Assembly (NCBI GenBank): GCA_963811105.1
Contig: CAWEPZ010000013.1
Coordinates: forward strand, 160,001-224,000
Direction: 5' to 3'
DNA length: 64,000 nt
From: Candidatus Bathyarchaeota archaeon
GTDB lineage: Archaea; Thermoproteota; Bathyarchaeia; Bathyarchaeales; Bathycorpusculaceae
Shown: positions 28,680 to 64,000 of the stretch, one piece after another
Layout of the letters: every line of letters starts with the position of its first letter
How positions within the stretch are numbered: position 1 is the stretch's first letter
Position numbers and translations under genes: made by a program
The notes under the pieces: generated by a model
What the model was told of the DNA's origin: nothing
The model's input: the letters and a program-made list of their open reading frames with translations, nothing else
The model's database searches: none

Positions 28680-29094
28680 AATTATGCTCGTGAATCAGCT
28701 GGCCTGAGTATGGGTTTATGCTAAAAAGCTGGAGATGGAGTCTGATTCTAAGTGCGATTTCCTACCCCGTTTAGCTTTAAGGCAGAAATTTGCATAAATA
28801 TTACCGATCCTCCACTTGCCAATCTGGCTTATAAAAATGTACATCAAACGTTACTAGTGCGCAATCCTTTGGATGGAAAAAAATTTATCATCCGTTTGCC
28901 CCCTATAAAGAAATAATCGGCTACGGACTTGAGCATCCATTCTTGGATTTAATCCTCAATTTACTTGCAAATCTGAGAAGTGGCGGTAACCACATGGTTA
29001 TTGAGGAACGCTTTTTTAAGCTTCTTAACTCATCTTTGGGAAGTCTTATATGCAGACTTGAACTGTCATATATCCGATTTTGTGGGGAAGAAGT

Positions 29095-31629
29095 ATGGAG
29101 AAGAAATTTGTTTCCGTGGGAATAATGATGCTTCTGTTGTCAAGTATGATGTTTGTGGCATTTGAAATTCATCCAGCAAAAGCTTCAGGGCAAATTGCGG
29201 CGCCAGATGATATCACCGAGACTATAACGCTCAAGGCCGCGACTGCCTGGTATTGGACATCGACGACAAGCATCAAAACGGTTGCCTGCACAGACATAAA
29301 CGGTGATGGACAGACCGAGATAATTACAGGCGGCTCCTTCTTTGACGGCGCACGCAACATAGCGCAACTAGTGGTATGGAATAGCACCAGTCTCGCAGCA
29401 GAGAAAATTACAAGCTGGCACTGGACAGGAAACACTACAATCAACTCCCTAGCTGCAGGAGACGTCAACGGGGATGGCAAAACCGAAATTGTCACCGGCG
29501 GATACTATTTCGATGGAACCCGCCAAGTTGCTCAGCTGGTTGTATGGAATGGCTCCAGCTTGGCTGCTGAGAAAATCCAAACTTGGTATTGGACTGGCAA
29601 CACTGTCATCAATTCGGTGGCTTTGGGCGATGTTGACGGTGATGGTCAAGTGGAAATCGTTACAGGCGGATACTACAATGATGGTGCACGCAATGTGGCA
29701 CAACTTATTGAATGGAACGGGCTTAATCTATCCGTTGATCGCTTATCGGGCTGGTATTGGACAGGTAATACCGTCATTAACTCAGTTGCTGTCGGCGATG
29801 TGGATAATGATGGTCAAGTGGAGATCGTTACAGGCGGATTTTACTTTGATGGAACACGCCTCGTTGCCCAGCTGATTGAGTGGACTGGAACGAATCTGGC
29901 AGTTGATAGGCTAACGTCTTGGTATTGGACAGGCAGCACAGTGATCAATTCAGTCGCGATAGGAGATGTTGATAATGATGGACAGACCGAGATAATCACG
30001 GGCGGCTCCTTCTTTGATGGCACACGCAACAATGCGCAGCTTGTGGTTTGGGCAGGATCCAATTTGTCAGTTGATCGGCTAACAGCTTGGTATTGGACAG
30101 GCAACACAGTCATCAATTCAGTTGCGTTAGGCGATGTTGACGGTGATGGCCAGATGGAGATTATTACCGGCGGGTCCTATTTTGATGGCACACGAAATAA
30201 TGCACAGTATGTCGTTTGGAGTGGCTCAAACTTGTCGGTTGAGAGTGCTAAGAACTGGTTCTGGACAAGTGATACTGTCATCAATTCGGTGGTTGCGGGG
30301 GATGTTAATGGAGACTTTTCAGCCGAGATAATTGCGGGCGGGGCGTACCATGATGGCACGCGTTTGAGTGCTCAGCTTACGGTGTGGGGTGTTGTTCAAA
30401 ATTATGTTCCAGCTTACAAGGTATATGGGTTAGATTTTAGCCCTTACAATAGAGATGGGCAAGATCCCAATAGTGGAACAGTGATTACTGAGGCGCAGAT
30501 AAGAGAATTATTGACAACGGTTAAACCGTATACTAATTGGGTGCGGACTTTTGGGTGTTCAAGCGGTCTTGAGGTGGCTGGTCGAGTAGCTCATGAGTTA
30601 GGTTTGAAGGCGGCTGTTGGAGCTTGGATTGGCAGTGATCTTTCTGCTAATGAAGGAGAAATTTCTAAGCTTATAAGCATCGGTAAAGCGGGTGAAGCGG
30701 ATATGTTAATAGTCGGCAGTGAAGTTCTGCTGCGTGGAGATGTTACAGAAACTCAGCTGATAGAGTACATCAACAGAGTAAAAGTTGCTGTTCCTGGAAT
30801 CCAAGTTGCAACAGCTGACGTTTATGGCGAACTTCTAGCACACCCAGCCGTGGTAGCTGCTGGCGATGTGGTCTTGCCCAATTTTTATCCTTACTGGGAA
30901 GGAGTAAACGTGACCTATGCTGTTGCCCATGTTAATGTTTGGTATAATGAAATAGTGTCAGCGGCTGGAGGGAAACCTGTTTTTGTTTCAGAGTCAGGTT
31001 GGCCAAGCAGTGGCAACCAGATTGGAGATGCTGTTGCGTCGCCCGAGAACGCTGCCTTTTACTTTTTGAATTTCGTCTCTTGGGCAAGGGCAAAGAATGT
31101 GCCTTTCTTATACTTTGAAGCTTTCGATGAACCCTGGAAAGCAGCTTCCGAGGGACCTCAAGGTGCCCATTGGGGCGTTTGGGACAAAGACGAAAACCTC
31201 AAAGCAGGAATGAAAGACGTGTTTGACAACAAAACAATCAGTGATAACTGGAGCGGCGACGGAACAATTGCAGGACCTGGAAACGCCACCATCCAATTTA
31301 TCTACGTACCACCATATGGAAGCTTTGACAACCTTAAAGGACAGGTTCTACACGTAAAACCTGCTAATTACAATGTAGCTGTATTCATCAAAGTTGGGTC
31401 AGGATGGTGGACAAAACCGCTCTTCTCCAATCCACTAACCTTCATAAATCCTGACGGAAGCTGGGTTTGCGACGTTACAACTGGAACAAATGATCAAACC
31501 GCCACTGAATTTGCTGCCTATCTGCTCCCTGTCGGCTATAACCCCCCACTAAGCAGCGGACAAAGCACATTACCTGCAGAGCTTGACCAGAACGCAGCCG
31601 CCAAATGCCAAACCACTCGAACGCCATAG
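29095..31629 (+). CDS. Secreted protein: N-terminal 7-blade propeller, GH17 beta-1,3-glucanase/transglucosylase, C-terminal accessory domain
   Basis: Signal peptide; 7x56-aa repeats (29248-30390); GLDFSPY, WVRTFG, VGSEVLLR, SESGWPS, YFEAFDEPWK. Confidence 0.88.
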   Translation: MEKKFVSVGIMMLLLSSMMFVAFEIHPAKASGQIAAPDDITETITLKAATAWYWTSTTSIKTVACTDINGDGQTEIITGGSFFDGARNIAQLVVWNSTSLAAEKITSWHWTGNTTINSLAAGDVNGDGKTEIVTGGYYFDGTRQVAQLVVWNGSSLAAEKIQTWYWTGNTVINSVALGDVDGDGQVEIVTGGYYNDGARNVAQLIEWNGLNLSVDRLSGWYWTGNTVINSVAVGDVDNDGQVEIVTGGFYFDGTRLVAQLIEWTGTNLAVDRLTSWYWTGSTVINSVAIGDVDNDGQTEIITGGSFFDGTRNNAQLVVWAGSNLSVDRLTAWYWTGNTVINSVALGDVDGDGQMEIITGGSYFDGTRNNAQYVVWSGSNLSVESAKNWFWTSDTVINSVVAGDVNGDFSAEIIAGGAYHDGTRLSAQLTVWGVVQNYVPAYKVYGLDFSPYNRDGQDPNSGTVITEAQIRELLTTVKPYTNWVRTFGCSSGLEVAGRVAHELGLKAAVGAWIGSDLSANEGEISKLISIGKAGEADMLIVGSEVLLRGDVTETQLIEYINRVKVAVPGIQVATADVYGELLAHPAVVAAGDVVLPNFYPYWEGVNVTYAVAHVNVWYNEIVSAAGGKPVFVSESGWPSSGNQIGDAVASPENAAFYFLNFVSWARAKNVPFLYFEAFDEPWKAASEGPQGAHWGVWDKDENLKAGMKDVFDNKTISDNWSGDGTIAGPGNATIQFIYVPPYGSFDNLKGQVLHVKPANYNVAVFIKVGSGWWTKPLFSNPLTFINPDGSWVCDVTTGTNDQTATEFAAYLLPVGYNPPLSSGQSTLPAELDQNAAAKCQTTRTP

Positions 31630-39662: not shown

Positions 39663-40035
39663 TTACCAAGCCCAAACGCACAACTGAGCAACTGTGCGAG
39701 TGCTATCCCAGTAGTCGCCTCCTGTTAATATTTCGTTCTTACCGTTAGCATCCACATCCCCAACCGTCACAGAATTAATGTATGTGTCACTAGACCAGTA
39801 CCAGGTTTTGACGTTTTTTAGTGCCAGTGTTGCGCCGTCCCAAACACACAATTGAGCAACGTTCCGAGCGCCATCATTATAGGTGCCACCTGTTATTATT
39901 TCGTTTTTGCCGTCAGTATCCACATCCCCAATACCGACAGAATTAATGAATGTGTGGCTTATCCAGTACCAGGCTTTAACATTTTTCAGCGTTAGCGTTG
40001 CACCATCCCAAACACACAACTGAGCACAATCCCGC
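39663..40035 (-). pseudogene. Orphan C-terminal two blades of the LCVW-type propeller
   Basis: AQLCVWDGATLTLKNVKAWYW...AQLCVWAW*; begins abruptly, no start or signal peptide. Confidence 0.8.
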
Positions 40036-40218
40036 TAATTCAAGTTTCTTTATTGTTGGTTGAAACGGATCAAATCCATTGGGTTTTAGTTCATATCTAA
40101 GCAAATTCTCTTAACCACTACCTAACCGTGGAGTCGTTCAATGCGTTGCTAGAACGCATGCTAGTCTGAATGGTTATTTCTTAAACAATTTTGACTGCGT
40201 GATACAAGTGTTTGAGGG

Positions 40219-44007: not shown

Positions 44008-44042
44008 TCGTAAACATGCATAATTGATATTTGGAGTAAGCT

Positions 44043-47794: not shown

Positions 47795-48611
47795 AAGGTA
47801 TCAAACAAGGGATTTTTGGAATGAGACTGCATTAAGATTCGGAAAAAAAAATGATTATGCACCAGTTCTACATCCGAGCGCAAAAGGTTTGCTCAACTGG
47901 TATACTGATTGGCTTCAAAAACACGCTCTTAACAATACTCTAAAAAAACTTGATGAAAAATTTGTACTAGAAGTGGGCTGCGGCGTCGGTCGATGGTGTG
48001 AAAGGCTAGCGAAAGCTGGTTCACGGGTAATTGGAATTGACGTTTCTCGCGAGATGGTCAAAAAGGCAAGGTACAGAATATCAAAACAGAAAACGAATAG
48101 TGATTTTGTAGTTTCGAGTGCGGACAAGCTTCCATTTGTCCCACAAATTTTTGACTCTGTGATAAGCGTGACAGTCTTGCAGCATATTGTGGTCGAAACC
48201 TTGTTTAAATCAGCCATCGCGGATATGGCGCGAGTAGTAAAAAAAGGTGGAAACATTATTCTGTTGGAGTACATCGCTCGATCAGAAGGAAATCATAGTC
48301 TCAGTTTTCCAACGGTTGCTCATTGCTATGAAGAAGCTTTCGTTGATAGTCTGGGATTCAGTCTAGTCAAAGTTCAAGGCGTCGACTTGTCCGTCTTCTT
48401 AAGACCATTCAACCAAATTACTAAGAAATATGGTAAATATGGAGAATTACTCGGTAGGCTTGAACCTTCTTCAAGATACCTGTTATCTGCTGCGCTTTTC
48501 TATTACATGGTGAGTATTGCCTCCCTTCTTTCGTTACCTTTAGATCTCATTTTTAGAAATATCTTTAGGCAATACTCTGAACATATGGTCTTTATTTTTT
48601 CGAGCAAATAA
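47787..48611 (+). CDS. Class I SAM-dependent methyltransferase
   Basis: VLEVGCGVGRW, GIDVS, VTVLQHI. Confidence 0.9.
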   Translation: MDKRYQTRDFWNETALRFGKKNDYAPVLHPSAKGLLNWYTDWLQKHALNNTLKKLDEKFVLEVGCGVGRWCERLAKAGSRVIGIDVSREMVKKARYRISKQKTNSDFVVSSADKLPFVPQIFDSVISVTVLQHIVVETLFKSAIADMARVVKKGGNIILLEYIARSEGNHSLSFPTVAHCYEEAFVDSLGFSLVKVQGVDLSVFLRPFNQITKKYGKYGELLGRLEPSSRYLLSAALFYYMVSIASLLSLPLDLIFRNIFRQYSEHMVFIFSSK

Positions 48612-48832
48612 TCCTAGAAATTAAGAATCGGATCGCCTATTCCCCATGGTCTTTCGTTTTTAATCTAATTCTTCTTCCAACGAAGTCCATTTTAACAATG
48701 TAACCTGATCTCTCTTTCTCGTAACTGGATATGCTCTAAATATCGCGCACTTAATACCACGCTTAGGAATGTAACTTTGTTTCAAAGACTTGAAGATTTA
48801 AGATATAAATGTGTGATTTTTACAACTCTTGT

Positions 48833-49655
48833 TCAAGATGATGACCATAAGTATAAGAACGTAGTTATTCTTCCAAAAAGTCCCCTGTTTAGTATTTTTC
48901 TGAGCACACTGTAATGAATTCTCAGCCTCACCAGGGAAAATGCCATTACAAACGCCAACTTCAGTTAGGCTAGGCGACAATTTACTACCTTCCTTTTCAA
49001 TCCAAATTATTCCAACTTCTTCTACTTTGAATCCTCTTTGAAAAGCAGAATATATTAGGTTAACATCAAAAGCAAAGTCAGCTACAATAAAATCTTCCTT
49101 AATTTCATCGATCAAGCTTCTTGTAAAGATTTTAACTCCACATTGCGTATCTTTTATGCCACGCAAATTCCAAAACAATAATTTGAGCAAAACGTTAAAA
49201 GACCTGCTGAAAATGACCCTCCTAGTATGTCTTGCCGATAGGATTCTGGAATTTTTTGCATATCTAGATCCAATAACCAGGTCATAACTGCTGGATAATT
49301 CTATAAGCCTGTCCAGTTCTCTCCAGGGTATGGATCCATCTGCATCGATGAAAGCAATAATGTCAGCTTGGCAAGTTTTCAAAGCTTCGATTATTGCACC
49401 ACCCTTTCCAAGTCTATTTGGAACGAATATGCCAACTGCATCATCATAACTGCTTATTATATTCTTGACAACCTCAGGAGTTTCGTCAGTACAGCCATCC
49501 ATAATTACAATCAATTCGCATCGGTTTTTGAACAATAAATCATTAGAAAGCATCAATTCCTTTAATGTTGACTCTATTCTTCCAACTTCATTATATGCTG
49601 GAATAATAAGCGAAACCATTGGTTTACTCTTCAAACACATCGCATTGTTATTCAA
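48833..49655 (-). CDS. Dolichol-phosphate glucosyl/mannosyltransferase (GT2, DPM/ALG5-like); C-terminal frameshift near 48965
   Basis: IIPAYNE, GKGGA, FIDAD, IGSR, DTQCGVK; shifted frame MAFSLVRLRIHYS...WSSS*. Confidence 0.85.
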
Positions 49656-50023
49656 CTCCGCTATCGCTCCAACAGTCGTAAGCTCGAACCCAAATACAAT
49701 TTATAAAGTACTACTGAGGACTCCCATAAATATCCAGCGCACTTTTATTGCTTATTGTTGTTTCCACGATATTTAAGAAAAACAAATTCTAGAAAACAAA
49801 TAAATTCTAGAACAAACCCAGTAACCAGAAAGTAGTGCATATAAACTGATGTGAATCCGCTGGGAAGTTAGACTGATTGATAAAGAAACAACCACAACCA
49901 ACAAAAAAAGAATAGTCCTGCAATTGAGGAGCACAGAAATTCGCTATTACCGCAACCTAGACTTTTTGTGAGCCATTTCACAGTTCTTTCGGTTATTGCT
50001 TAAGTTCACTTCTGGAACTTGCA

Positions 50024-51394
50024 TCAAAAACTCTTTGCATCTTCTTCAGATTTGATAGTACAAGAAATATCAAGTACGAAAACATGCAGCCCAATATTGC
50101 CTAGAATTACAATTCGCAAGGGTTCAACCGTCAAAGTTTCATTCACAATTCCCAACAGGTTACTCGTCATCCAAGGCGCCAGTGGTAGAAAGAAAAAGGG
50201 CAAAGGACAATTCAATATACTGTAAAGCAAAGCTATGAGTGAAGCAACCCAATAAAACGCCCATTTAATCCGCCCTCCCACGCTTGCTATGATCAAGAAC
50301 GGCAACGCCCAAATAAACCACTGTTCTTCGATAGCCCTATACGAAAGAAACAAACCGAATATAATTAACAGCATTGCCGTTGCCAATTCAAAGGTGCGAT
50401 TGCGAAAAGTCATCTTACCAATTTTCCAACAAACAACTGTCAAAGAGATAACAACAAAAACGATCGAACCAGCCGACGCGAAAGAAACAAACCCTGCGTT
50501 GATTGGTAAATACACAAGTCGATTTAGTAAGTAGAGCGACCAGTAAGTGAGACCGAACCCAACTGGCACAACAACAGGATTGATGACGGCACTATTTGCA
50601 GTACCACCATTGATGATGAAAAAGTTAACCAAATTCCCAGCCGAGCCGATACTTGGGAGAAAAAGTATAACCGAGGTAGCTATAAAAATTGAAACAAAAC
50701 TTGCGTAATTCTTCAATCGCTTAGGAACATGACCTGACTTAAAGAAGTAAATCGTAATCGGAATCAAGAAAAGGATCGGATACAACTTGCAAGCTACACC
50801 TAAACTGAGAAAGACTGCTGAAAGAGATATTCGATTCTTCAGAACAAAAAAGAAGGCGGCCAAAGAGAACAAAGCCGGCAATGTATCCCACATACCCCAA
50901 CCTGCAGAAATCCAGATCACGAAAGGATTTATGAACCAGAAAATGGCAGCTTTTTCTGCTATCCCCTTATCATTCGTTAACTCTAGCACAATCTTATAGA
51001 GTAAAAGTGTGACTAAAAGGTCCGAAATCAAGAGTGGAAACTTTACCACAGAGTCAAAGAGGATTCCTGGAACATATTGAATATTAGAGGAGGGATAGAA
51101 GTTCAGAGCATTTGGAAGGGAGGACATAGGAATTGCATGTATTGAGAAAAGTCCTGCCAGCCAATCATAGGTGTACGCTATTGGAATCATCGTGTAATGA
51201 TACCATAGCGGAGCGAACGAATGTATACTAAAAGGACCATCTCTTATGATATCCATAGATATTTTGTACCACCCATACACATCAAGCGGGTGAGCAGAAA
51301 TCGGCATCAAAACTACTCTGGCCATTATCCCTACTACTATTATAGTTGCTAGTTTGTGTCCATATATGAATCTACTAATATTCATGAAACCCAC
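50024..51394 (-). CDS. GT87/PIG-M-like GT-C mannosyltransferase
   Basis: AHPLD, KFPLLISD, INPFVIWISAGWGMWD, KLYP, QWFIWALP. Confidence 0.78.
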   Translation of the reverse strand: MGFMNISRFIYGHKLATIIVVGIMARVVLMPISAHPLDVYGWYKISMDIIRDGPFSIHSFAPLWYHYTMIPIAYTYDWLAGLFSIHAIPMSSLPNALNFYPSSNIQYVPGILFDSVVKFPLLISDLLVTLLLYKIVLELTNDKGIAEKAAIFWFINPFVIWISAGWGMWDTLPALFSLAAFFFVLKNRISLSAVFLSLGVACKLYPILFLIPITIYFFKSGHVPKRLKNYASFVSIFIATSVILFLPSIGSAGNLVNFFIINGGTANSAVINPVVVPVGFGLTYWSLYLLNRLVYLPINAGFVSFASAGSIVFVVISLTVVCWKIGKMTFRNRTFELATAMLLIIFGLFLSYRAIEEQWFIWALPFLIIASVGGRIKWAFYWVASLIALLYSILNCPLPFFFLPLAPWMTSNLLGIVNETLTVEPLRIVILGNIGLHVFVLDISCTIKSEEDAKSF

Positions 51395-51477
51395 GTTTTT
51401 CTCTCATACTTCACGTTATTGGTTAGGTGCATATGAATATTAGGCATAATTATAGCGATTTCCCCGAATAAATTTTC

Positions 51478-51670
51478 TCAACTTATCGAGTGGAATGGCG
51501 CTAACTTAGCAGTTGATAGACTCACCAGCTGGTACTGATATAATCGCACAGTGATTAATTCTGTTAACGTAGCTGATGTTGTTGGTAGCACCCAAGCCAA
51601 GGTTGTTAATGGCCGATATTTACACGATGGCACACGCAACAGTGCTCAACTTACCGTCTATAGCATGATC
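51478..51670 (+). pseudogene. Degraded propeller blades
   Basis: QLIEWNGANLAVDRLTSWY* then VINSVNVADV...HDGTRNSAQLTVYSMI. Confidence 0.7.
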
Positions 51671-52005
51671 CGAGGTCAAAAATTGCAGTCAAAACACGGC
51701 AATCACATAAATATTATCCCTTTTCTATTGATCTTTTGTTTATGAATGTATATGGTTAAACCTGTACACTATAACGTGGAATCCTTTCAACAGGGGTAGT
51801 ACTTACGCGAGCTCTTAACTATGGCATCAAGTCTGTCAATGTTAAGAAAATTCCGGAAGTAACGTGGAACATTTCAGAAGACCTGACCAAATATACGAGA
51901 ATTTGCTGAGCACGACAAGTTAATAAATATCACCCAAAAAAGCTATCTCTAAAAAAAGAAAAACAAAAATTGGGCGTCAAAAGTGAGCCCAAGACTTGGA
52001 AGTTT

Positions 52006-53272
52006 TTACCCCCAAATGGTTAATTGCGCATTATCTCGTATTAGGTCGAAATATGAACCTCCGGCGATAACTCGGTTTCCAGATCCTGTGTTTGCGATTG
52101 AAACAGAATTGACTCGGGTGTTTGATGTTTGGAACCAACTTGCAGTCGATATGGTTGTTAAGCTTGCTCCATTCCAGTCTATTAGTTGAGCATTGTCCTT
52201 AGTTAGGTCATTGAACACTCCGCCTGTGATTATATCTAAGCTGCTGCCGCCTGAGTAGTTGGCAATTGAAACAGAGTTAACTTTGGTGTCTGAATACCAA
52301 TACCATGAGACAACATTTTGTAAGCCGAGAGTCGTCCCGTTCCATTCTGCCAATTGAGCGTTGTTGCGTGTGCCATCAAAGTAATATCCGCCTGTTACAA
52401 TGCTTAAGGCTGTTCCACCAGTTACATTTGCCACTGCAATCGAGTTAATTTCGGTGTTGCCTGTCCAGTACCAGGTTACAATATTGTTGAGTGCTAAGGT
52501 AGCTGCGTTCCAGACAACAAGTTGGGAATTGAGTCTGGTTGTGTCGTTAAATGCTCCGCCTGTTATTATGCTCAAGGATGTGCTTCCAGTAATGTTGGCT
52601 ACTGCAACGGAATTGATGTAAGTGTCTGAATTCCAGTACCAGGTTTTAACGTTTTGCGGTGCAAGTGTTGCACCATTCCAAACAACTAACTGAGCGTTCC
52701 AGCGTGTTCCATCAAAGTACGCGCCTCCAGTGACTATGCTTAGACCGGTTGTGCCAGTTATGTTTGCAACGGCAACTGAGCTAATCTGTGTGTCGCCTAC
52801 CCAACGCCAAGTTACCACATTAATAGAGCCTAACGTGTTTCCATTCCAAACGGCTAACTGAGAATTCCAATTTGTGCCATCAAAATAGGACCCGCCAGTA
52901 ATGATTTCATTCAATCCGTCGCCGTTAACGTCCCCGATTGCAACAGAAGAGATTTGAGTGTGATCTGTCCAAAACCAATATATAACTTTTTCCAGCGCTA
53001 GGTTGGAAGCATTCCAGACTCCTAGTTGAGCATTGTTTCGCAACCCGTCATAGAAACCACCCAACCGTGACAATTTCTGCTTTACCATCGCCATTAACAT
53101 CACCAGTGGCAATTGCCGAAACGTTCGTGCTATCTGTCCAATACCAAGATACTATATTTTGAGAAATAAGTGCCGAAACCGGTGCTGATAAAATAGTCGC
53201 CGAAATAAATGCTACCGCCAACACTAAGGCAAATATTTTCATGAATCGTTTTTTTAACATATTATAAGGCAT
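52006..53272 (-). CDS. Stand-alone secreted 7-blade propeller, divergent type with sequons replacing Ca-binding loops (frameshift near 53062)
   Basis: Signal peptide; 7 WxW...AQLxVW repeats; ends NAQLTIWG*. Confidence 0.85.
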
Positions 53273-53445: not shown

Positions 53446-54705
53446 ATGAGGAAGAATTTTCTAAGATCAGTTGTCTTGCTCGCAATTTTGACTTTAGTCT
53501 TAACTATGGCTGTGCAGACGGTCAAAGCACTAACCGTTGAAAACGTAAAAACTTGGTACTGGGGAGATAGCACTCAAGTAAGGTCTGTTGCTGTTGGAGA
53601 TGTGGATGGTGATGGCAAAAATGAGATCGTTACGGGCGGATCTTATAGTGATGATACTCGTAACATTGCTCAGTTGTGCGTTTGGGATGGCGCTACGTTA
53701 GCTCTTAAAAACGTTAAGACGTGGCTGTGGCAAAATTACACATTCATCTATTCTGTTGTTGTCGGAGACGTGGATGCTGACGGCAAAACCGAAATAGTAA
53801 CAGGAGGCTACTACATTGATGCCACTCATGGTGATATTGCTCAGTTGTGCGTTTGGGATGGCGCTACGTTAGCTCTTAAAAACGTTAAAACCTGGTACTG
53901 GACAACCGCCACAGAAATCCATTCTGTTGCTCTCGGAGACATAGATGCTGACGGCAAAACCGAAATAGTAACAGGCGGCTACTACTATAATGGCGCTCGA
54001 GAGGTTGCTCAGCTATGTGTCTGGGACGGTGCATCGCTGGCTCTTGAAAACGTTAAAGCCTGGTACTCGCCAGGTAACACATTCATCTATTCTGTTGTTG
54101 TCGGAGACGTGGATGCTGACGGCAAAACCGAAATAGTAACAGGCGGCTACGCCATCTATAACTCTTCTGTTGCTCAGCTATGTGTCTGGGATGGTGCAAC
54201 GCTGGCACTGGAAAACGTTAGGACATGGTACTGGGGAAACTACGCTCTACTCAATTCTGTTGTTGTCGGAGACGTGGATGCTGACGGCAAAACCGAAATA
54301 GTAACAGGCGGCGATTATTCTGATAGTACTCGTGGCCTTTCTGCTCAGTTGTGTGTTTGGAATGGTGCAACACTGGCACTGGAAAACGTTCAAGCCTGGC
54401 AATGGGAAGGTTTTACACGAATCTATCCTATTGCAATAGGAGATTTGTATGGTGATGGCAAAACTGAAATAGTAACATGCGGCGACTACAATAGTACTGG
54501 TTTAGTTGGTCAGCTATGTGTCTGGGATGGTGCATCGCTGGGTCTGAAAAACGTTCAAACTTGGAAATGGGGAGTCGGCACCGGCATCTGGTCTGTTGTT
54601 GTTGGCGATGTCGATGGTGATGGGAAAAATGAGATCGTTACTGGCGGAACGTATAGTGATGGTACTCATGGCATTGCTCAGTTGTGTGTTTGGAGCGGCT
54701 ATTGA
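53446..54705 (+). CDS. Stand-alone secreted 7-blade propeller, LCVW type, with hypervariable loops
   Basis: Signal peptide; 7 repeats containing GDVDADGKTEIVTGG and AQLCVWDGATLAL. Confidence 0.9.
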   Translation: MRKNFLRSVVLLAILTLVLTMAVQTVKALTVENVKTWYWGDSTQVRSVAVGDVDGDGKNEIVTGGSYSDDTRNIAQLCVWDGATLALKNVKTWLWQNYTFIYSVVVGDVDADGKTEIVTGGYYIDATHGDIAQLCVWDGATLALKNVKTWYWTTATEIHSVALGDIDADGKTEIVTGGYYYNGAREVAQLCVWDGASLALENVKAWYSPGNTFIYSVVVGDVDADGKTEIVTGGYAIYNSSVAQLCVWDGATLALENVRTWYWGNYALLNSVVVGDVDADGKTEIVTGGDYSDSTRGLSAQLCVWNGATLALENVQAWQWEGFTRIYPIAIGDLYGDGKTEIVTCGDYNSTGLVGQLCVWDGASLGLKNVQTWKWGVGTGIWSVVVGDVDGDGKNEIVTGGTYSDGTHGIAQLCVWSGY

Positions 54706-54904: not shown

Positions 54905-54975
54905 GCCATCAAAGCCAGAGCAGCACACCAAGACCAAACACACAACTGAGCAAAAGACTGATAGAAAAGACCATT
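54905..54975 (-). pseudogene. Terminal propeller strand remnant (TYNG...FAQLCVWSW)
   Basis: 54934-54953 is the exact reverse complement of 54674-54693. Confidence 0.55.
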
Positions 54976-55086: not shown

Positions 55087-57261
55087 TCAGGTCATGCCCC
55101 AAACGGTTAGTTGACTGTTTAGACGGGTTCCGTCATTGAATGCTCCGCCTGTGATTATCTCACTTGGAAAGTCACCATTTATGTTGTCTACCGTCACTGA
55201 GTTGATTATTGTGTTGCTTGTCCAGTACCACGATTGAATATTCTTAACTGCTAGATTTAAACCTGACCACACTATCAACTGAGCAACATCCCGAGAACCA
55301 TCATTAAACCTTCCCCCAGTCACAATCTCAGCTTGCCCATAACCATCAACATCACCAATTGCCACAGAATTAATAACAGTATTACCCGTCCAATACCACG
55401 ATTGGATATTCTTAACTGCTAGGTTTAAGCCTGACCACACTATCAACTGAGCAACATCCCGAGAACCATCATTAAAGAATCCACCCGTAACAACCTCAAT
55501 CTGATCATTATCGTCAACATCACCAATTGCCACAGAATTAATAACAGTATTACCCGTCCAATACCACGATTGGATATTCTTAACTGCTAGGTTTAAGCCT
55601 GACCACACTATCAACTGAGCAACATCCCGAGAACCATCATTAAACCTTCCCCCAGTCACAATCTCAGCTTGCCCATAACCATCAACATCACCAATTGCCA
55701 CAGAATTAATAACAGTATTACCCGTCCAATACCACGATTGGATCCCCTCCACCGCAAGATTCGAACCAGCCCACACAATAAGCTGAGCAACATCCCGAGA
55801 GCCATCATTAAAGAATCCACCCGTAACAACCTCGAGCCGTCCATCACCGTCAACATCACCCACAGCTACTGAATTAATCACTGTATTGCCTGTCCAGTAC
55901 CAACACGTAAGCCGCTCAACCGACAAGTTGGAACCAGACCAGACGATCAACTGTGCAACATTTCTGGTGCCGTCAAAGAAAGACCCTCCAGTAACAACCT
56001 CCACTTGCCCGTCACCGTCAACGTCGCCAACCGCCACGGAATTTATTGTGGTGTTACCTGTCCAGTACCAACACTGAATTCTCTCAGCAGCTAAGCTTGA
56101 GCTGTTCCAAACTATCAGCTGAGCAACGTTTCGCGTTCCATCGTTGAAGCATCCGCCCGTAACAATCTCTGTTTGGCCATCACCGTCAACATCGCCCGCA
56201 GCCGTCGAATTTACGTAGGTGTTAGATACCCAGTTCCAAGACGAAACACCGTTAAGTTGCAGTTGTTTGGGACCATGGTTGCAGTCAACTACGTAGGTAA
56301 AGTTGGCGACACCGTATATTCTCAACAAGTAGCTATCAGTCTTACTGGCAATAAACTCGTGAATATGAGTCCCACCGCCATTTATTACTTGATTTGGAAC
56401 CACTGTCAAATTAGAAAAATACACAACCGAACCCCAATAGCTGTCTGGACTAATATGAATAGTGAGCAAAACCAAATCGCCTTGACTAACCCCTGAAACC
56501 CAGTAATAATCAACATCATTAGCCTCGTGAAAACCCGTCTGCGTATACATTGGCTGCTCCGAAATTGGATAGTTGCAGTCAACTACGTAGGTAAAGTTGG
56601 CGACACCGTATATTCTCAACAAGTAGCTATCAGTCTTACTGGCAATAAACTCGTGAATATGAGTCCCACCGCCATTTATTACTTGATTTGGAACCACTGT
56701 CAAATTAGAAAAATACACAACCGAACCCCAATAGCTGTCTGGACTAATATGAATAGTGAGCAAAACCAAATCGCCTTGACTAACCCCTGAAACCCAGTAA
56801 TAATCAACATCATTAGCCTCGTGAAAACCCGTCTGCGTATACATTGGCTGCTCCGAAATTGGATAGTTGCAGTCAACTACGTAGGTAAAGTTGGCGACAC
56901 CGTATATTCTCAACAAGTAGCTATCAGTCTTACTGGCAATAAACTCGTGAATATGAGTCCCACCGCCATTTATTACTTGATTTGGAACCACTGTCAAATT
57001 AGAAAAATACACAACCGAACCCCAATAGCTGTCTGGACTAATATGAATAGTGAGCAAAACCAAATCGCCTTGACTAACCCCTGAAACCCAGTAATAATCA
57101 ACATCATTAGCCTCGTGAAAACCCGTCTGCGTATATGTGGCGTTAGGTTCATTATATGAAGCCGCAGCGGAACCTCTTTGAACTGAAGAGGAGAAACCTG
57201 CTGAGCCTATGAATATTGAGGATAGTAAAATTATGAGTAAGAAGAATACAGATTTTTTCAT
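55087..57261 (-). CDS. Secreted protein: three identical PPC-like beta-sandwich modules plus C-terminal 7-blade propeller
   Basis: Signal peptide; DVDYYWV...GD...YLLRIY x3; 7 repeats ending NSQLTVWGMT*. Confidence 0.85.
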   Translation of the reverse strand: MKKSVFFLLIILLSSIFIGSAGFSSSVQRGSAAASYNEPNATYTQTGFHEANDVDYYWVSGVSQGDLVLLTIHISPDSYWGSVVYFSNLTVVPNQVINGGGTHIHEFIASKTDSYLLRIYGVANFTYVVDCNYPISEQPMYTQTGFHEANDVDYYWVSGVSQGDLVLLTIHISPDSYWGSVVYFSNLTVVPNQVINGGGTHIHEFIASKTDSYLLRIYGVANFTYVVDCNYPISEQPMYTQTGFHEANDVDYYWVSGVSQGDLVLLTIHISPDSYWGSVVYFSNLTVVPNQVINGGGTHIHEFIASKTDSYLLRIYGVANFTYVVDCNHGPKQLQLNGVSSWNWVSNTYVNSTAAGDVDGDGQTEIVTGGCFNDGTRNVAQLIVWNSSSLAAERIQCWYWTGNTTINSVAVGDVDGDGQVEVVTGGSFFDGTRNVAQLIVWSGSNLSVERLTCWYWTGNTVINSVAVGDVDGDGRLEVVTGGFFNDGSRDVAQLIVWAGSNLAVEGIQSWYWTGNTVINSVAIGDVDGYGQAEIVTGGRFNDGSRDVAQLIVWSGLNLAVKNIQSWYWTGNTVINSVAIGDVDDNDQIEVVTGGFFNDGSRDVAQLIVWSGLNLAVKNIQSWYWTGNTVINSVAIGDVDGYGQAEIVTGGRFNDGSRDVAQLIVWSGLNLAVKNIQSWYWTSNTIINSVTVDNINGDFPSEIITGGAFNDGTRLNSQLTVWGMT
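56278..57135. repeat. Tandem 294-bp repeat, about 3 copies, apparently identical
   Basis: Unit starts at 56278, 56572 and 56866. Confidence 0.95.
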
Positions 57262-57829
57262 TTATTCCTTCTCCTGCATGTGATAACAGTGAGTCCCAAT
57301 GCCCTTGCCAGCCTTTAAGCTTGTGCAAGCAGCTTCTTTCCCACTTTACCTGTCCCATATCTTGTTTCTTGGCTTAAAGTTTGCGGTCGTGCCAAAGCGA
57401 AGGACCAAACTGAAAATCTGCAAATAGGGAAACGTTTTTCATATATTTTCTACATAATGTAATTTTAGGAAATAAGGTTAAGTTAATCCCGCTATTTTAG
57501 ACCTAGAACAAGAAAAGGGAAGCATTAGAAGACGCAATTATGTCGCAACTTAACGCCACTATTAACAACAATCTTTTAGTTTTAAAAAGCCAATGTAGAT
57601 TTGTTGTCTTGTTTTGTGGTGTCTTAGGCAGATTACTCTCTAACCGGCTGCTTTCAGCGTTGTCTTGAAATCCAAAATTGTGGGGTCAGAGGATATTGCA
57701 GTTGAGGAAATGAAGAAAAGTTGCAATTTGAGGGGGTAGGAAAAGCTGGAAACGACTTCTAGACGCTTAGAATTGCTAAAGCTTGAAGGTTTTCCCAAAC
57801 GCACAACTGAGCACTAGACCTTCGTCTGC

Positions 57830-58534: not shown

Positions 58535-58966
58535 CTATTCTAGCTCTTCCAAAAAAAGTAAGGTGATGCCAAATGATTTTTTCCCCATTTCATCTGCCAA
58601 CTCTTGCTCTTTACGAGCAAAAAGGGCGTCACCGGCAATTTTATTGGCCAGCGCCAAAATGAAGCAATCGGGAAGCGAAATAGCTCGTTGGCACTTGATT
58701 TTGGCCGCTTCGTTGATTAATTGTGAGGTGCCTTCAACCGTAAAATATCCTGAAGCAAGGAGTTTGTTTACTCTTTCTTTTGAGTGCTGCCATCCAAATT
58801 TTCTGCATAGGACATATCGCAGCTCTGTTATGGCTAACTCCGTGGTGTAGGCTTCAACCATGTCGGTTTCGAGAGCTTTTTTGAGCTTTTGTCCCAAGCT
58901 ATCAGAGAATATTAGCTCAATTAGTGAGCTGGTGTCTATGGCTAATTTTCCTTTCAAGTCTTTCAT
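58535..58966 (-). CDS. vapC: PIN-domain VapC toxin
   Basis: AIDTSSLIE, TELRYVLCR, ISLPDCFILALA. Confidence 0.88.
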   Translation of the reverse strand: MKDLKGKLAIDTSSLIELIFSDSLGQKLKKALETDMVEAYTTELAITELRYVLCRKFGWQHSKERVNKLLASGYFTVEGTSQLINEAAKIKCQRAISLPDCFILALANKIAGDALFARKEQELADEMGKKSFGITLLFLEELE

Positions 58967-59186
58967 TATCGATCTTCCGTTCTGTCTCTAGTTCTTCAAG
59001 CGCTTCTTTAACTCCTATAGTTGGGCTGCATGCTTCTTCCAGCAACCGAGGGTTTTTATTCCGCTGATCCACCAAGAAACGAAGGGCGTCATTTAGGTCA
59101 ACTCGTCGCCCCGTCTTGATTTGAAGTTCGGATGCGACCTTCAAGAGTTTTTCTTTAACGTCCTCAGTTACAGATATTGTAGTCAT
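58917..59186 (-). CDS. VapB-type antitoxin
   Basis: MTTISVTEDVKEKLLKVASELQ...VDLNDALRFL; overlaps the PIN gene. Confidence 0.8.
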   Translation of the reverse strand: MTTISVTEDVKEKLLKVASELQIKTGRRVDLNDALRFLVDQRNKNPRLLEEACSPTIGVKEALEELETERKIDNERLERKISHRHQLTN

Positions 59187-59259
59187 ATAGATCACATTAG
59201 CTATAGCAGCTATAGTAGATATACCCATCTAGTTGTATCTGCGAGAATTTACGCATTTG

Positions 59260-60170: not shown

Positions 60171-63100
60171 TCAGGTCATGCCCCAAACGGTTAGTTGGCT
60201 GTTTAGACGTGTTCCGTCATAGAATGTTCCGCCAGTAATGATTTCACTTAAGAAGTCACCGTTCGCATCGGTAATAACGACTGAGTCGATTGAAGTGTTG
60301 TCTGTCCAATACCACGTTTTTACGTTCTCAAACCCTAGCGTTGACCCTGACCAAACTACTAGCTGAGCAACATCTCGCGTGCCATCATAGAATTGACCAC
60401 CTGTCACTACTTCAGCTTGCCCATCACTATCAGGATCGCCTATGGCAACGGAATTGATTGCAGTGTCGCTCATCCAATACCAGGTAGTCAGTCTATCAAC
60501 TACTAAGTTGGCTCCGCTCCATTCGACGAGTTGAGCGATATTGCGTGTGCCATCATTGTAGTAGCCGCCGGTAACAACTTCAACCTTAGTATCGCCGTCA
60601 GCGTCACCAATCGCAACTGAATTAATCACCGTGTTACCCATCCAATACCAACACCTTAGTCTATCAACCGTCAAGCTAGCACCATTCCACTCTACAAGTT
60701 GAGCAACATTACGTAAACCATCGTAGTAGAATCCGCCAGTAACAACTTCGGCTTGACCGTCACTGTCTACGTCGCCTACGGCTACAGAATTAATCGCTGT
60801 GTCGCCACTCCAATACCAACTCTTGACATTTTCCAGCGACAAAATAGTGCCGTTCCAAACACACAACTCAGCAACATTCCGAGTACCATCGTTGTATTGT
60901 CCCCCAGAGACAATTTCAACTTGTCCATCGCCATCAACGTCGCCTATCGCTAATGACGTGATAACTGTATCTCCGGTCCAATTCCATGTTTTAACGTTCT
61001 CCAAAGCTAGGTCAGCACCATTCCAAACGACTAACTGAGCCACTTTGCGTGTACCATCGTAATAGTATCCCCCAGTAACAATTTCAACTTGACCATCACC
61101 ATCAACATCACCTAACGCTACTGAGTTAATGGTGGTGTTGCCGGTCCAGTACCAACATTTGACGCACTCTACAGCCAGGTTCGAGCTGTTCCAAACTACT
61201 ATTTGGGCTACGTTGCGTAAGCCATCGTTATAGTATCCCGCTGAGATGATTTCGACATGTCCGTCATTGTTAACATCACCTGAAGCTTCCGAATTGATGA
61301 TTGTGTATGAATTCCAATACCAAGCTTTAACGTTATTGACAACTACGTCTCCAATAATAGTTATCGCAGTATTGCTAACGTATAGGTTATTAAAAGTGGA
61401 AACTTCGCCGAATACCGGTGACAACTGAGCACTCAAAATATAGTTGCCCTTTGCAAGCAAAGAGGTATTCCACGAGAACTCAACTGTGCGGTTGGTTTTA
61501 CCTGGCAAGGTGAAAGTTGATGTGTGAATAACTGTAGAGTTTGCATAAACTAAGAGGGTGAAGTTCTCAGCAAAGTAACCAAAGTTTGATACTGCAACAT
61601 AGGTCTTTTGGATAGACCCCAGCGGTATTATCGCATTTGGAGATACGACATTTTCTAATCCGATGTCAGGCTTGCCTATTACGGACACAATCGCGTTTGT
61701 TCGAGTAGTTTCCGGAACACTTGGAAAATACACGGTTGCATAATTGATAATTTCCGCATAATCAGGCAAATTGTTTTTGGGTTTGATAGAGTAGTTGGCG
61801 TAACCTCCCTGACTTGGCCCTACTTCACCTACAAACCAGGTTATTGTTCGAGATGATGGATTATAAGTACCTGGTGGGGCAATAATAGAGGCATCAGCCG
61901 TATCGTAGACTGATCCGATCTGTAAAGTTGAATCATCTAAGTCTGCATCTAATGTGTCTGTAAAGTACACTCCAAAAGCAATTCCTCCACCTTCGTTCTC
62001 AAACTCTACCTTGTATTCTAGTTTTTGGCTCTCTGAGACATAGCCTTGATCACCGTATTTAACGTTAGGATCACGCGCAACGCTAATTTGGCTCGTAGCA
62101 TTATTGGAGCCAAATTTTCCTGAATCCCAATCTTGAGGCATTGGTTGTGGAAAATCAACGTTGAATACGTCGCCCATATGGCCATGACCCCCAACTAACA
62201 TAACATCGTCGTCATATGCAATGAAGTTGGGAGCGATTGGAATGCCAGGTATGTAGTTAGAATTTATGTCTATTCCTTGGTTGAAATAAGCCGCCCAGAC
62301 GAGCTCAGTACAGTACCAACCAAGTAAGTCCCCATTTAAGCGCGGAAGGGGATTATATCCAATGGGCGGTATTGGTAACACGTAAGGAAGGTTTTTGTGG
62401 AGCTCTGCTTCCGCAAAGGCTACTGCTGCGTTGATTTGTGCTTGTGTAGCATCTTTTACCCTAAGAATCCCAACATCAGTTCGACGGGGGACATCCCACT
62501 TTTCGATAGACTCTTTGATTGGACCGCTATGACCACCCTCATTTAGAACGGAAGAAATCACATAACCGTTACCATCGTAAATTCCCACATGATCCCAGTA
62601 GCCTGGAACCTGCCCACCGTTACTATGTTCTATAAGAATGTCACCCTTTTTGAGTTGCTGTCTCCAATCTGATGTGCTCCCTGAAGATACAGGCGTTAAA
62701 TATGATGGAGCTTTCGCTTCAACCAATGATAACGTCTCGGGACTATTTGACGAAGGGGATAGAAGTAATGGGTAAGCTAGAACTGTAGTCTTCAGAATGG
62801 TTCCACTTGCTAATCCCCATTTTGCACGAACAGTGATAGAAAGAGAATTGATGGATTTTGCATTTACATTAGTAATATCCCAGAAGACGGTATTTACCTC
62901 CCAATCGCAATAACCATTTCCCGAACAGGATACGAATTCTACGTATTCAGGCAGCGCAGCTTTAATTTGAGTATTATCGACGGCTATTAACCCATCATTC
63001 ATGTACTCAACTATGTAATTTACTGTTTGACCTGGACTTACCCGTTCAGGTCCCCAAACATTTACTTTAAGATCTGCTTGCGGCGGCAGACCTATTTTTA

Positions 63101-64000
63101 TTTTTTCTACACCTATTGACAGAACTCTTGATGGAGAGCTATCATATAGTATTCCAGAAACGACTCCAATAAGTGGTTCATTGAAAAAACCTTTCATTTC
63201 AAATACATTTGGTTGTGCAATATTGTCATAAGTCCATCCTTCACCTGAACCAAAATCGGTAACATAAGAAAGAATTGAGAAACCTTGACCATAGTAAGGA
63301 TTAGCTGAACTATTTATGCTGACGTGAGTAGTAGAGACCGTTAGAGGACCATAATAGTACCCTGAAGATTGACCTTGAATTTGAGTTTGAAGCACATAAA
63401 GTCCTGTTGAAGGATAAGCCACGCTTGACCGATAACTCGGTATTCCATCAAGGTTTAGTATTGCATATACTAGGCTTGAGCCAATGTGGCTGATCGTACA
63501 ATTAGCCACAAAGCTGTCGAAAATATTACTACCATTAACAGATTCTGACAAGAACCCCTCAAGGATTCCTTGAAGACCAACTGACAAGGTACCTTTTAAA
63601 CAGGTTTTGTTTTCCCCAGGAACATTGAAAATTATCCCCTGCCAGTCACCCTGATATTGGCTTCCTTCTATTCTTGCATTGTATGTACCTTTTGAAAAGC
63701 CTTCCCCAACGAACGATCCAGAGCTAATCTGGACAATTTCCAAGTTAGTAAAGTTAAGAGACCCGCTCAAATCGCCTGTTACCAAAGTTTGCAGCGTTGC
63801 AGTTTGAACATTAACAGTTTCACCTAGTTCAGCAGTGGTTGATATTACTTCATTCATCGTCGAGAGCGTGCGCGTATAATTAAGAGTAAAGCTCGCCGTT
63901 ATCGAATGATTCGCTTGGATTTTATTGAAACGAACAGTCTGATCACCCAATGAAGTAACAGTAATCGAACTACCATCAACAGTTATACTCTCAATAAAAT
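60171..64000 (-). CDS. Large surface protein (5'-truncated by window): Ig-like/DUF11 domains, permuted papain-like NlpC/P60 (YiiX/YebB-like) domain, DPNxKxG domain, CARDB-like domain, C-terminal 7-blade propeller
   Basis: LKKGDILI...WDHVGIY...YCTELVWAAY (His before Cys); ADLKV...PGQTVNY; RDPNVKYG; 7 repeats at 60171-61323; frame open to window end. Confidence 0.82.
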   Translation of the reverse strand, partial: FIESITVDGSSITVTSLGDQTVRFNKIQANHSITASFTLNYTRTLSTMNEVISTTAELGETVNVQTATLQTLVTGDLSGSLNFTNLEIVQISSGSFVGEGFSKGTYNARIEGSQYQGDWQGIIFNVPGENKTCLKGTLSVGLQGILEGFLSESVNGSNIFDSFVANCTISHIGSSLVYAILNLDGIPSYRSSVAYPSTGLYVLQTQIQGQSSGYYYGPLTVSTTHVSINSSANPYYGQGFSILSYVTDFGSGEGWTYDNIAQPNVFEMKGFFNEPLIGVVSGILYDSSPSRVLSIGVEKIKIGLPPQADLKVNVWGPERVSPGQTVNYIVEYMNDGLIAVDNTQIKAALPEYVEFVSCSGNGYCDWEVNTVFWDITNVNAKSINSLSITVRAKWGLASGTILKTTVLAYPLLLSPSSNSPETLSLVEAKAPSYLTPVSSGSTSDWRQQLKKGDILIEHSNGGQVPGYWDHVGIYDGNGYVISSVLNEGGHSGPIKESIEKWDVPRRTDVGILRVKDATQAQINAAVAFAEAELHKNLPYVLPIPPIGYNPLPRLNGDLLGWYCTELVWAAYFNQGIDINSNYIPGIPIAPNFIAYDDDVMLVGGHGHMGDVFNVDFPQPMPQDWDSGKFGSNNATSQISVARDPNVKYGDQGYVSESQKLEYKVEFENEGGGIAFGVYFTDTLDADLDDSTLQIGSVYDTADASIIAPPGTYNPSSRTITWFVGEVGPSQGGYANYSIKPKNNLPDYAEIINYATVYFPSVPETTRTNAIVSVIGKPDIGLENVVSPNAIIPLGSIQKTYVAVSNFGYFAENFTLLVYANSTVIHTSTFTLPGKTNRTVEFSWNTSLLAKGNYILSAQLSPVFGEVSTFNNLYVSNTAITIIGDVVVNNVKAWYWNSYTIINSEASGDVNNDGHVEIISAGYYNDGLRNVAQIVVWNSSNLAVECVKCWYWTGNTTINSVALGDVDGDGQVEIVTGGYYYDGTRKVAQLVVWNGADLALENVKTWNWTGDTVITSLAIGDVDGDGQVEIVSGGQYNDGTRNVAELCVWNGTILSLENVKSWYWSGDTAINSVAVGDVDSDGQAEVVTGGFYYDGLRNVAQLVEWNGASLTVDRLRCWYWMGNTVINSVAIGDADGDTKVEVVTGGYYNDGTRNIAQLVEWSGANLVVDRLTTWYWMSDTAINSVAIGDPDSDGQAEVVTGGQFYDGTRDVAQLVVWSGSTLGFENVKTWYWTDNTSIDSVVITDANGDFLSEIITGGTFYDGTRLNSQLTVWGMT

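Follow-up and report, generated by a model that had tools for sequence, protein, structure and literature searches.

Partly homogenised blades and variable loops in a standalone FG-GAP beta-propeller of a Bathyarchaeota archaeon

We analyzed a 64,000-nt stretch of the genome of a soil archaeon, Candidatus Bathyarchaeota archaeon (GenBank assembly GCA_963811105.1, contig CAWEPZ010000013.1, positions 160,001 to 224,000 of the forward strand), here called the window, in whose coordinates positions are given unless a contig is named. Its focal gene is an uninterrupted open reading frame (ORF) of 419 aa at 53446–54705 (+), composed of seven similar repeats that each carry two variable stretches. 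With moderate confidence, we read the product as an exported, probably calcium-stabilised seven-bladed FG-GAP binding module, in which the blades have been homogenised and the top face diversified; export, calcium, face, selection and ligand are the parts of this reading that we infer. The system is a variation on a known theme, that of the fungal WD40 receptors, in an uncharacterised family, and not a new diversity-generating system.

Results

Domain assignment and predicted fold of the focal protein

Pfam analysis of the focal protein returned FG-GAP (PF01839; E 2.5e-32, 110.6 bits against a cut-off of 22.1, six stretches) and FG-GAP_3 (E 2.5e-28, 98.9 bits against a cut-off of 26.9), and all families above their curated cut-offs were of the FG-GAP type or other propeller families. 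PF26736, which is precomputed for many homologues, was absent from its Pfam results, NCBIfam gave no family match, and a cluster look-up for names returned 'hypothetical protein' only.

An AlphaFold2 model built from 66 homologues (predicted local distance difference test score 95.3, predicted template modelling score 0.90) shows a helix at residues 2–22, followed after residue 29 by 28 strands, four per blade. Comparison with solved structures by VIA-align gave the CylK propeller (7ron_A) as the best match (Z 45.0, r.m.s.d. 2.2, 343 residues aligned), and Z scores of 35–36.5 over 354–368 residues for integrin alpha propellers; Foldseek ranked these folds in the same way. The C-terminal propeller of CylK (PDB 7ron), although the best structural match, shares 12% sequence identity, and CylK is a two-domain enzyme, while no evidence of a catalytic site was seen in the focal protein. 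In a sequence search of solved structures, the sole match was CRTAC1 (1e-05).

The seven tandem repeats measure 55–57 aa each, and the protein terminates straight after the third strand of the seventh. Judging from the number and order of strands in the model, the ring is presumably closed by residues 30–37, a strand that precedes blade 1. A DxDxDGxxE motif occurs in six of the seven repeats, with Tyr at the second Asp in repeat 6, and calcium probably stabilises the propeller. The Cys of an AQLCVW strand is present in 7/7 repeats, with one additional Cys in repeat 6. Cleavage of the N-terminal signal peptide is predicted from sequence features. The gene and its N-terminal elements are as follows.

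53446..54705 (+): focal ORF, 419 aa, candidate signal peptide plus seven-bladed FG-GAP beta-propeller, with no other domain (ORF list, Pfam, AlphaFold2 model, structure comparison)
53446..53529 (+): putative N-terminal signal peptide or anchor, residues 1–28, with a basic start, a hydrophobic helix and V-K-A before residue 29 (sequence; model helix 2–22 at lower confidence)
53533..53556 (+): first strand, residues 30–37, predicted to fill the missing outer strand of the last blade (DSSP strand E30–37; repeat 7 stops after its third strand)

Exchange of short tracts between blades

The repeat alignment, from which the following rows are taken, was examined at the DNA level. The 41-nt tract is a framework string pointed out in an earlier description made from the letters of this DNA alone (the sequence-only reading). 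Segment B is the 57-nt segment of strand 1, calcium loop and strand 2, and segment C the 36-nt strand-3 segment.

53536..53703 (+): repeat 1; variable stretches 53557–53583 and 53641–53667; codon set in common with repeat 7 (segment B, 52/57 nt)
53704..53874 (+): repeat 2; variable stretches 53725–53751 and 53809–53838; exact 41-nt tract at 53764–53804
53875..54042 (+): repeat 3; variable stretches 53896–53922 and 53980–54006; 41-nt tract with two mismatches at 53935–53975
54043..54207 (+): repeat 4; variable stretches 54064–54090 and 54148–54171; exact 41-nt tract at 54103–54143
54208..54378 (+): repeat 5; variable stretches 54229–54255 and 54313–54342; exact 41-nt tract at 54268–54308
54379..54543 (+): repeat 6; variable stretches 54400–54426 and 54484–54507; most divergent framework, Asp to Tyr in the calcium motif, extra Cys
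54544..54702 (+): repeat 7, three strands only; variable stretches 54565–54591 and 54649–54675

The 41-nt string has three exact copies and one with two mismatches, all within repeats 2–5, and no match with up to three mismatches was found in repeats 1, 6 and 7. The sequence-only reading had called the framework DNA nearly identical between blades, which is borne out in part. Over all 21 repeat pairs, Nei–Gojobori means for the framework are 0.50 for synonymous (pS) and 0.10 for nonsynonymous differences (pN), and for the loops pS is equal, at 0.50, and pN is 0.46. With a mean framework pS of 0.50, homogenisation of the blades is partial.

Codon choice divides the blades into two groups, {1,7} and {2–6}. 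At framework columns with the same residue, an identical codon is used in 219 of 283 pair-columns among repeats 2–6, where genome codon usage predicts 100.2, and in 21 of 27 columns between repeats 1 and 7 (9.8 expected); for most pairs across the two groups, codon identity is at random expectation. Repeats 1 and 7 encode the same peptide through alternative codons, and codon bias is therefore ruled out as the cause of the framework identity.

Identical tracts of 36–57 nt group the blades in conflicting ways, giving a mosaic. Repeats 1 and 2 differ at 13/57 nt in segment B and at 0/36 nt in segment C (Fisher p=0.0013), repeat 2 thus matching repeat 1 at all 36 positions of the latter, while in segment B repeat 2 matches repeats 4 and 5 at 56/57 nt and repeats 4 and 5 match each other at 57/57. 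Between repeats 2 and 4 the distribution is reversed, with 1/57 nt different in segment B and 9/36 in segment C (p=0.0007). Such conflicting genealogies in adjacent segments point to short-tract gene conversion, or unequal exchange, between the repeats. The conserved codons that lie between variable ones in the loops are likewise identical in 37 of 45 same-residue comparisons among repeats 2–6 (18.0 expected). Whole blades, and not framework patches alone, would therefore be of recent common ancestry, and since the loops share that ancestry with the framework, their differences appear codon-specific rather than tract-wise.

Location and composition of the variable positions

The two variable stretches of each repeat correspond to alignment columns 8–17 and 36–45. 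Across 462 blades from 66 homologues, entropy is highest at columns 8, 10–12, 14 and 16 and at columns 36, 38 and 40–44 (2.3–3.8 bits), and these hypervariable columns are interspersed with W, T, I, S, Y and D that hardly vary. By the strand boundaries of the model, the first set comprises the turn that links strand 4 with the following strand 1, together with alternate residues of that strand, and the second set the end of strand 2, the 2–3 turn and the start of strand 3. Each blade has 11–13 variable positions, rich in Tyr, Asn, Ser, Gly and Arg. Tyr makes up 14.6% of the variable positions of the focal protein and 14.2% of those of the family; a background of six-frame ORFs of at least 200 aa has 3.6%, which makes the enrichment 4.0-fold. 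Asn, Trp, Arg, His, Thr, Ser and Gly are also enriched, and Lys, Leu, Pro, Met, Ile and Ala are depleted. Several descriptive statements of the sequence-only reading were borne out: two hypervariable loops per blade, with sequences exactly as it had listed them, a Cys in each blade, and loops enriched in aromatics, here in the form of Tyr.

In an antiparallel four-strand blade, the 4–1 and 2–3 connections lie at one end and the 1–2 and 3–4 connections at the other. By this strand topology, both variable connections should therefore share one face, opposite the DxDxDG calcium loops. In integrins, the face opposite the calcium loops is the ligand side.

The favoured reading can be set out as a mechanism. 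The four strands of each blade, the DxDxDGxxE 1–2 loop and the 3–4 turn, all near-uniform, would form the scaffold, and the variable 4–1 connections (plus the first half of strand 1) and 2–3 connections would carry the binding residues on the side away from the calcium loops. Blades would be repeatedly homogenised through short-tract gene conversion or internal re-amplification, and change of amino acids on the top face would be favoured, or at least tolerated, leaving the loops different. With fourteen different loops on one face, the result would be a single asymmetric binding surface and not seven equal sites. By analogy with the sister propellers, whose fusion partners are polysaccharide-active enzymes, our best guess for the ligand is a glycan or another polymer.

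Selection on the variable codons

At variable codons, the mismatch frequencies between repeats at positions 1, 2 and 3 are 0.67, 0.68 and 0.47, compared with 0.19, 0.09 and 0.34 at the remaining codons; in the enzyme-fused paralogues of the same genome, the usual order of codon positions is kept even at variable columns. The youngest blade pairs were compared for pN at variable codons against pS elsewhere (uncorrected p-values). The values are 0.74 against 0.13 for repeats 3–4 (p=3e-6), 0.68 against 0.23 for repeats 3–6 (p=9e-4) and 0.63 against 0.27 for repeats 4–6 (p=0.008). In the closest homologue (L009, 66% identity), the near-identical blades 3 and 6 differ by four nonsynonymous and one synonymous change in 13 variable codons, and by two nonsynonymous and no synonymous changes in the other 43 codons. 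As an internal contrast, near-identical blades of the neighbouring paralogue at 55087–57261 differ at 0–1 variable codons and at 4–12 others.

The variable codons of the focal gene act as if selected for amino-acid change, with positions 1 and 2 exceeding position 3 and pN far above pS in the youngest pairs. Positive selection, which the sequence-only reading had proposed, is accordingly suggested but unproven, since the ratio of nonsynonymous to synonymous divergence (dN/dS) over whole blades reaches at most 0.96. The comparison of loops with framework that it had recommended gives the difference in pN at equal pS stated above, and a pooled loop dN/dS of 0.86.

Several points weigh against the favoured reading. 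Whole-blade dN/dS is below 1 in 21/21 pairs, the maximum being that of repeats 3–4, and the pooled loop ratio is compatible with relaxed constraint. The variable columns were picked by their variability, and gene conversion depresses the synonymous yardstick, both of which inflate the contrast between pN and pS. The repeat pairs are non-independent, and two of the p-values alone survive Bonferroni correction for 21 pairs. Third positions are also more diverged in variable codons (0.47) than elsewhere (0.34). Finally, the face is assigned from strand topology and general knowledge of integrins.

The strongest competing account, possible though clearly less likely than the favoured one, is an ordinary FG-GAP propeller, in which the scaffold is under purifying selection, the top loops are weakly constrained and the identical tracts are leftovers of duplication. 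The pooled loop ratio of 0.86 and whole-blade ratios that never exceed 1 fit this account, as does the mean framework pS, by which most blade pairs are old, and propeller loops vary in general. Weakly constrained loops are, however, not what the enzyme-fused island paralogues show: there the variable positions are conserved between blades (loop pN 0.19–0.28, about equal to their framework pN), and these positions are therefore not intrinsically unconstrained. The excess of change at codon positions 1 and 2, a pN at variable codons two to six times the pS elsewhere in the youngest pairs, and a non-random composition, strongly skewed to Tyr, Asn, Ser, Gly and Arg, also speak against it, and the incongruent identical tracts demand recombination beyond old duplication. 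Taken from the sequence comparisons, diversifying selection at the top-face codons of the focal gene is probable rather than shown.

Family-wide pattern and distribution

The focal protein was searched against a set of 5.8 billion proteins. Among the 8000 candidates scored, 1043 are relatives at E≤0.001, the best non-self match having 66% identity, and no orthologue above 66% protein identity was found in this search, in species genomes or in Joint Genome Institute (JGI) metagenome contigs. Many of the relatives come from metagenomes of soil, wetland and sediment and are 'hypothetical proteins' of ~420 aa, and the named genome matches are Candidatus Bathyarchaeota metagenome-assembled genomes. 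A family match was present in three of 12 same-genus genomes and, at E≤1e-30, in one of 200 genomes drawn from the class. The family is large and patchily distributed, and is one of ~420-aa standalone propellers of Bathyarchaeota-type archaea from soils and sediments; homologues in other genomes include fusions to beta-helix, deacetylase, SGNH, PKD and peptidase-like modules.

Blade number is seven in 66/66 aligned homologues. At the variable columns, diversity within a protein equals that of the family (fixation index, Fst, 0.01–0.12), while those framework columns that vary show partial homogenisation inside proteins (Fst 0.2–0.39; 0.26 for column 28, 0.36 for column 2 and 0.39 for the Cys column). 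Column 28, invariant in the focal protein, is mismatched in 85% of between-protein pairs.

Blade-to-blade identity was determined for 118 homologues with at least six blades. Its median is 0.71 at ordinary and 0.28 at variable positions in the 85 standalone forms, and 0.70 and 0.45, respectively, in the 33 longer or fused forms. The focal protein, at 0.78 and 0.17, ranks 10th of the 118 by the size of the gap, and its contrast between framework and loops is strong within the family but not unique. For pairs of proteins 80–90% identical at ordinary positions, median identity at variable positions is 0.49, falling to 0.21 for pairs 70–80% identical. No positional orthology of blades with the closest homologues was detectable, same-position identity being about equal to different-position identity.

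These values bear on a further account, which we consider improbable: that of a lectin of the PVL or tachylectin type, multivalent through equivalent sugar sites, one in each blade or blade interface, with the loop differences playing no part in binding. The VCBS/FG-GAP supercluster has its DxDxDG calcium site between strands A and B and includes such lectins; PVL and tachylectin-2 belong to it, PVL has the calcium motif, and their sugar pockets are formed by blade-top loops (PMC8023676). Tyr, Asn, Asp and Arg are frequent in the focal loops, and sister propellers are fused to glycan-active enzymes, both in keeping with such a lectin. PVL and tachylectin-2 nevertheless repeat the same site in each blade, whereas in the focal protein each blade is different; a blade-to-blade identity of 0.17 at variable positions makes seven equivalent sites unlikely, and the conserved-loop, lectin-like pattern is found in the fused paralogues instead.

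Tests for a diversity generator

The sequence-only reading had also raised a diversity generator, with a check for the reverse transcriptase and template of a diversity-generating retroelement (DGR), and cassette shuffling. No reverse transcriptase (RVT_1) was matched in the 96.65%-complete genome; the control search matched three of 14 known genomes. No template or donor cassette emerged from a whole-genome blastn search, in which the best other DNA match was 77% over 313 nt and carried different loops. The 14 focal loops do not recur in 117 other family proteins, the best matches covering 5–8 of 9 residues.

No public sequencing run contained more than 0.15 of the gene's sampled words. Four runs yielded short contigs of 130–408 nt, a mix of close (95–99% identical) and distant relatives. 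The contigs 95–99% identical cross repeat junctions and loops unbroken, covering for example 53779–53972 with eight differences and 54348–54602 with seven, an observation in favour of the assembly and against hypermutation between closely related strains. Of 193 listed contig differences, 38 were mapped: 12 to variable codons (10 nonsynonymous), four to conserved loop codons, 18 to framework (eight nonsynonymous) and four to the signal peptide, most of them from contigs below 90% identity; the contig data are too fragmentary for a per-site test.

The sequence-only reading had further listed same-subtype orphan fragments at 39663, 54905 and 57790. All three are present, and the first is a two-blade fragment, but the other two are merely 18-nt remnants:

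39663..40019 (−): orphan fragment, last two blades and C-terminus of a same-subtype gene, without start or signal peptide (translation, blastn, blade hidden Markov model (HMM))
54934..54951 (−): remnant of 18 nt, with the AQLCVW codons exactly as in repeats 5 and 7 (pattern search, translation)
57795..57812 (−): 18-nt remnant (17/18) of the AQLCVW strand (pattern search, translation)

The fragment at 39663–40019 is 67.7–77% identical to the focal gene by blastn and has a blade-HMM score of 104.1, the best in the genome after the focal gene; from these comparisons it is probably a remnant. The 18-nt AQLCVW pattern has 12 matches in the window and none in 100 shuffles, and the two short remnants are therefore not due to chance.

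Programmed diversification, in which a DGR or the assembly or conversion of silent cassettes (as in variable lymphocyte receptors (VLRs) or antigenic variation) rewrites the loops, would account for fourteen localised variable stretches on a uniform scaffold, for the relatively conserved third positions of variable codons and for same-subtype orphans within the island, but it is very unlikely in view of the missing RVT_1, a best other match of 77% with different loops, two of three orphans of just 18 nt, the lack of loop reuse and the contigs 95–99% identical that span the loops. The diversity generator and cassette shuffling raised by the sequence-only reading are both unsupported by these results.

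A genomic island of propellers and glycosyltransferases

The genome has 18 ORF pieces that bear blades, and 16 of them lie at 189–232 kb of the same contig (C13), from 29 to 64 kb of the window and beyond. Paralogues in the window include the following.

29080..31629 (+): paralogue, 849 aa, FG-GAP propeller fused to a GH17-like domain; loops conserved between blades (domain search, pN/pS)
52006..53272 (−): neighbouring paralogue broken by a frame change, degenerate calcium loops (ORF list, blade HMM, translation)
55087..57261 (−): neighbouring paralogue, 724 aa, three identical 98-aa modules ahead of a seven-blade FG-GAP propeller whose blades are alike, including the loops (ORF list, Pfam)
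60171..64000 (−): paralogue leaving the window (2222-aa open frame in the genome), DUF11, DUF7619 and FG-GAP propeller (domain search)

The propellers of the island are interspersed with glycosyltransferases, PMT-like and PIG-like membrane transferases and a methyltransferase, and its paralogues are fused to GH17-like, NosD/beta-helix, DUF11 and DUF7619 modules. Several genes are split or truncated. In the paralogue at 52006–53272, the frame change separates the part with signal peptide and first blade from the remainder, and most blades have N-x-T/S sequons (ANITG, ANVTG, ANYSG) in place of DxDxDG, as if calcium sites had been swapped for glycosylation sites. The ORFs at 36510–37403 and 37343–38821 (−), and those at 33538–33918 and 33944–36418, overlap or adjoin and contain NosD/beta-helix plus FG-GAP, or 5+2 blades. 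In appearance, each set is one fused gene interrupted by frame changes; intact fused homologues of ~700 aa are present elsewhere.

In the ORF at 55087–57261, positions 56278–57135 hold a 294-bp unit present 2.9 times at 100% identity, which encodes the three 98-aa modules and has no Pfam family; it could be either a very recent triplication or a mis-count by the assembler. An ORF with a PIN domain (3.7e-13) at 58535–59228 (−) overlaps a small upstream ORF without family, in a layout like that of a VapBC toxin–antitoxin pair. Neither Pfam nor NCBIfam gave a match for an 881-aa ORF at 45149–47794 (+) that lies amid the glycosyltransferase block. That block (40001–52000) has a G+C content of 0.36–0.39, against 0.43–0.45 in the flanking propeller genes and a window mean of 0.42; the G+C profile shows no sharp island boundary.

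Nearly all FG-GAP blades of the genome fall within one 43-kb stretch of this contig, with a further seven-blade gene on another contig (C11, 324475–326691). The genome measures 3.49 Mb, against 1.2–2.8 Mb for the 12 sampled genomes of the same genus. The locus appears to be a flexible accessory island with a cell-surface or exoenzyme role, one that combines FG-GAP surface proteins with glycosyltransferases.

Discussion

The focal protein resembles the propellers of integrin alpha (FG-GAP, PF01839; prokaryotic integrin-type propellers, PMC3192720) in its seven four-stranded blades, its profile match, the DxDxDG motif in the 1–2 loop and the structural Z scores of 35–36.5. It differs in being an archaeal, standalone protein of 419 aa without thigh or calf domains, membrane anchor or beta-subunit partner, in carrying the calcium motif in six of seven blades, and in having blades far more alike than those of integrins.

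Highly repetitive FG-GAP/alpha-integrin propellers are known from archaea and bacteria, according to the available portion of the survey by Pereira and Lupas (PMC9218822), which also describes protein-specific internal re-amplification of blades in VCBS propellers and presents VCBS-type propellers as typically linked to carbohydrate recognition. The focal blades are likewise highly similar, as through recent amplification. In that same portion of the survey, the terms 'hypervariable' and 'gene conversion' each occur 0 times and hypervariable surface positions are not described, and the focal family differs from the propellers it covers in a blade number fixed at seven (66/66) and in the mosaic arrangement of identical tracts (PMC9218822). 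In a titles-level listing of the literature, we found no description of a hypervariable archaeal FG-GAP beta-propeller pattern, and no paper was found that joins FG-GAP with Bathyarchaeota or Bathyarchaeia.

The targets of DGRs and the VLRs of lampreys share with the focal protein a uniform scaffold on which Tyr-, Ser- and Gly-rich variable residues are confined to certain places, but in the focal genome no reverse transcriptase, template or donor cassettes were found. The label 'antibody-like' or 'VLR-like' that the sequence-only reading had attached to the protein was overstated, and the concerted evolution of fungal WD40 receptors with hypervariable surface sites is the better analogy. The WD40 repeats of Podospora het-d and het-e undergo concerted evolution and have four positively selected residues on the interaction surface (PMC1805685). 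In both systems, propeller repeats in concerted evolution carry a few surface positions that appear to be diversifying on an interaction face, that face being predicted for the focal protein. Repeats in HET-D and HET-E differ in belonging to the WD40 superfamily, in being intracellular and NACHT-fused, and in a polymorphic repeat number, fixed at seven here, and positive selection is formally shown for them, whereas for the focal gene it is suggested only (PMC1805685). Of the features of HET-type systems, exchange between repeats at the DNA level was found in the focal gene, as mosaic tracts and the excess of identical codons (219/283 against 100.2), while variable repeat number and NACHT/NB-ARC architecture were absent from the focal family. 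Nucleotide identity between the Podospora repeats is reportedly much higher than in the focal gene.

A wider and more tentative proposal, which we regard as doubtful at present, is that the ~420-aa standalone FG-GAP propellers make up an extracellular repertoire of variable binders, in which blade-level conversion would keep the scaffold and selection would renew a Tyr-rich top face resembling complementarity-determining regions, each genome or paralogue having its own specificity, such as for viruses, neighbouring cells or polymers. If true, archaea would have in this family a secreted equivalent of the hypervariable WD40 sensors found in fungal and bacterial NOD-like receptors (NLRs).

If the loops of this binding module are simply under loose constraint, the focal protein is a usual representative of a widespread family of folds. 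In several lineages, recognition repertoires are built on repeat scaffolds whose binding face can be renewed, including leucine-rich repeats in VLRs and NLRs and WD40 repeats in fungal NLRs, and also in engineered designed ankyrin repeat proteins (DARPins); should the family work as we favour, the FG-GAP/integrin-type propeller would join such scaffolds. For protein engineering, it would supply a seven-blade scaffold that is naturally idealised and stabilised by calcium, with its variable positions defined. For Bathyarchaeota, abundant uncultured archaea with essentially unstudied surface proteins, it would point to a biology of recognition or adhesion.

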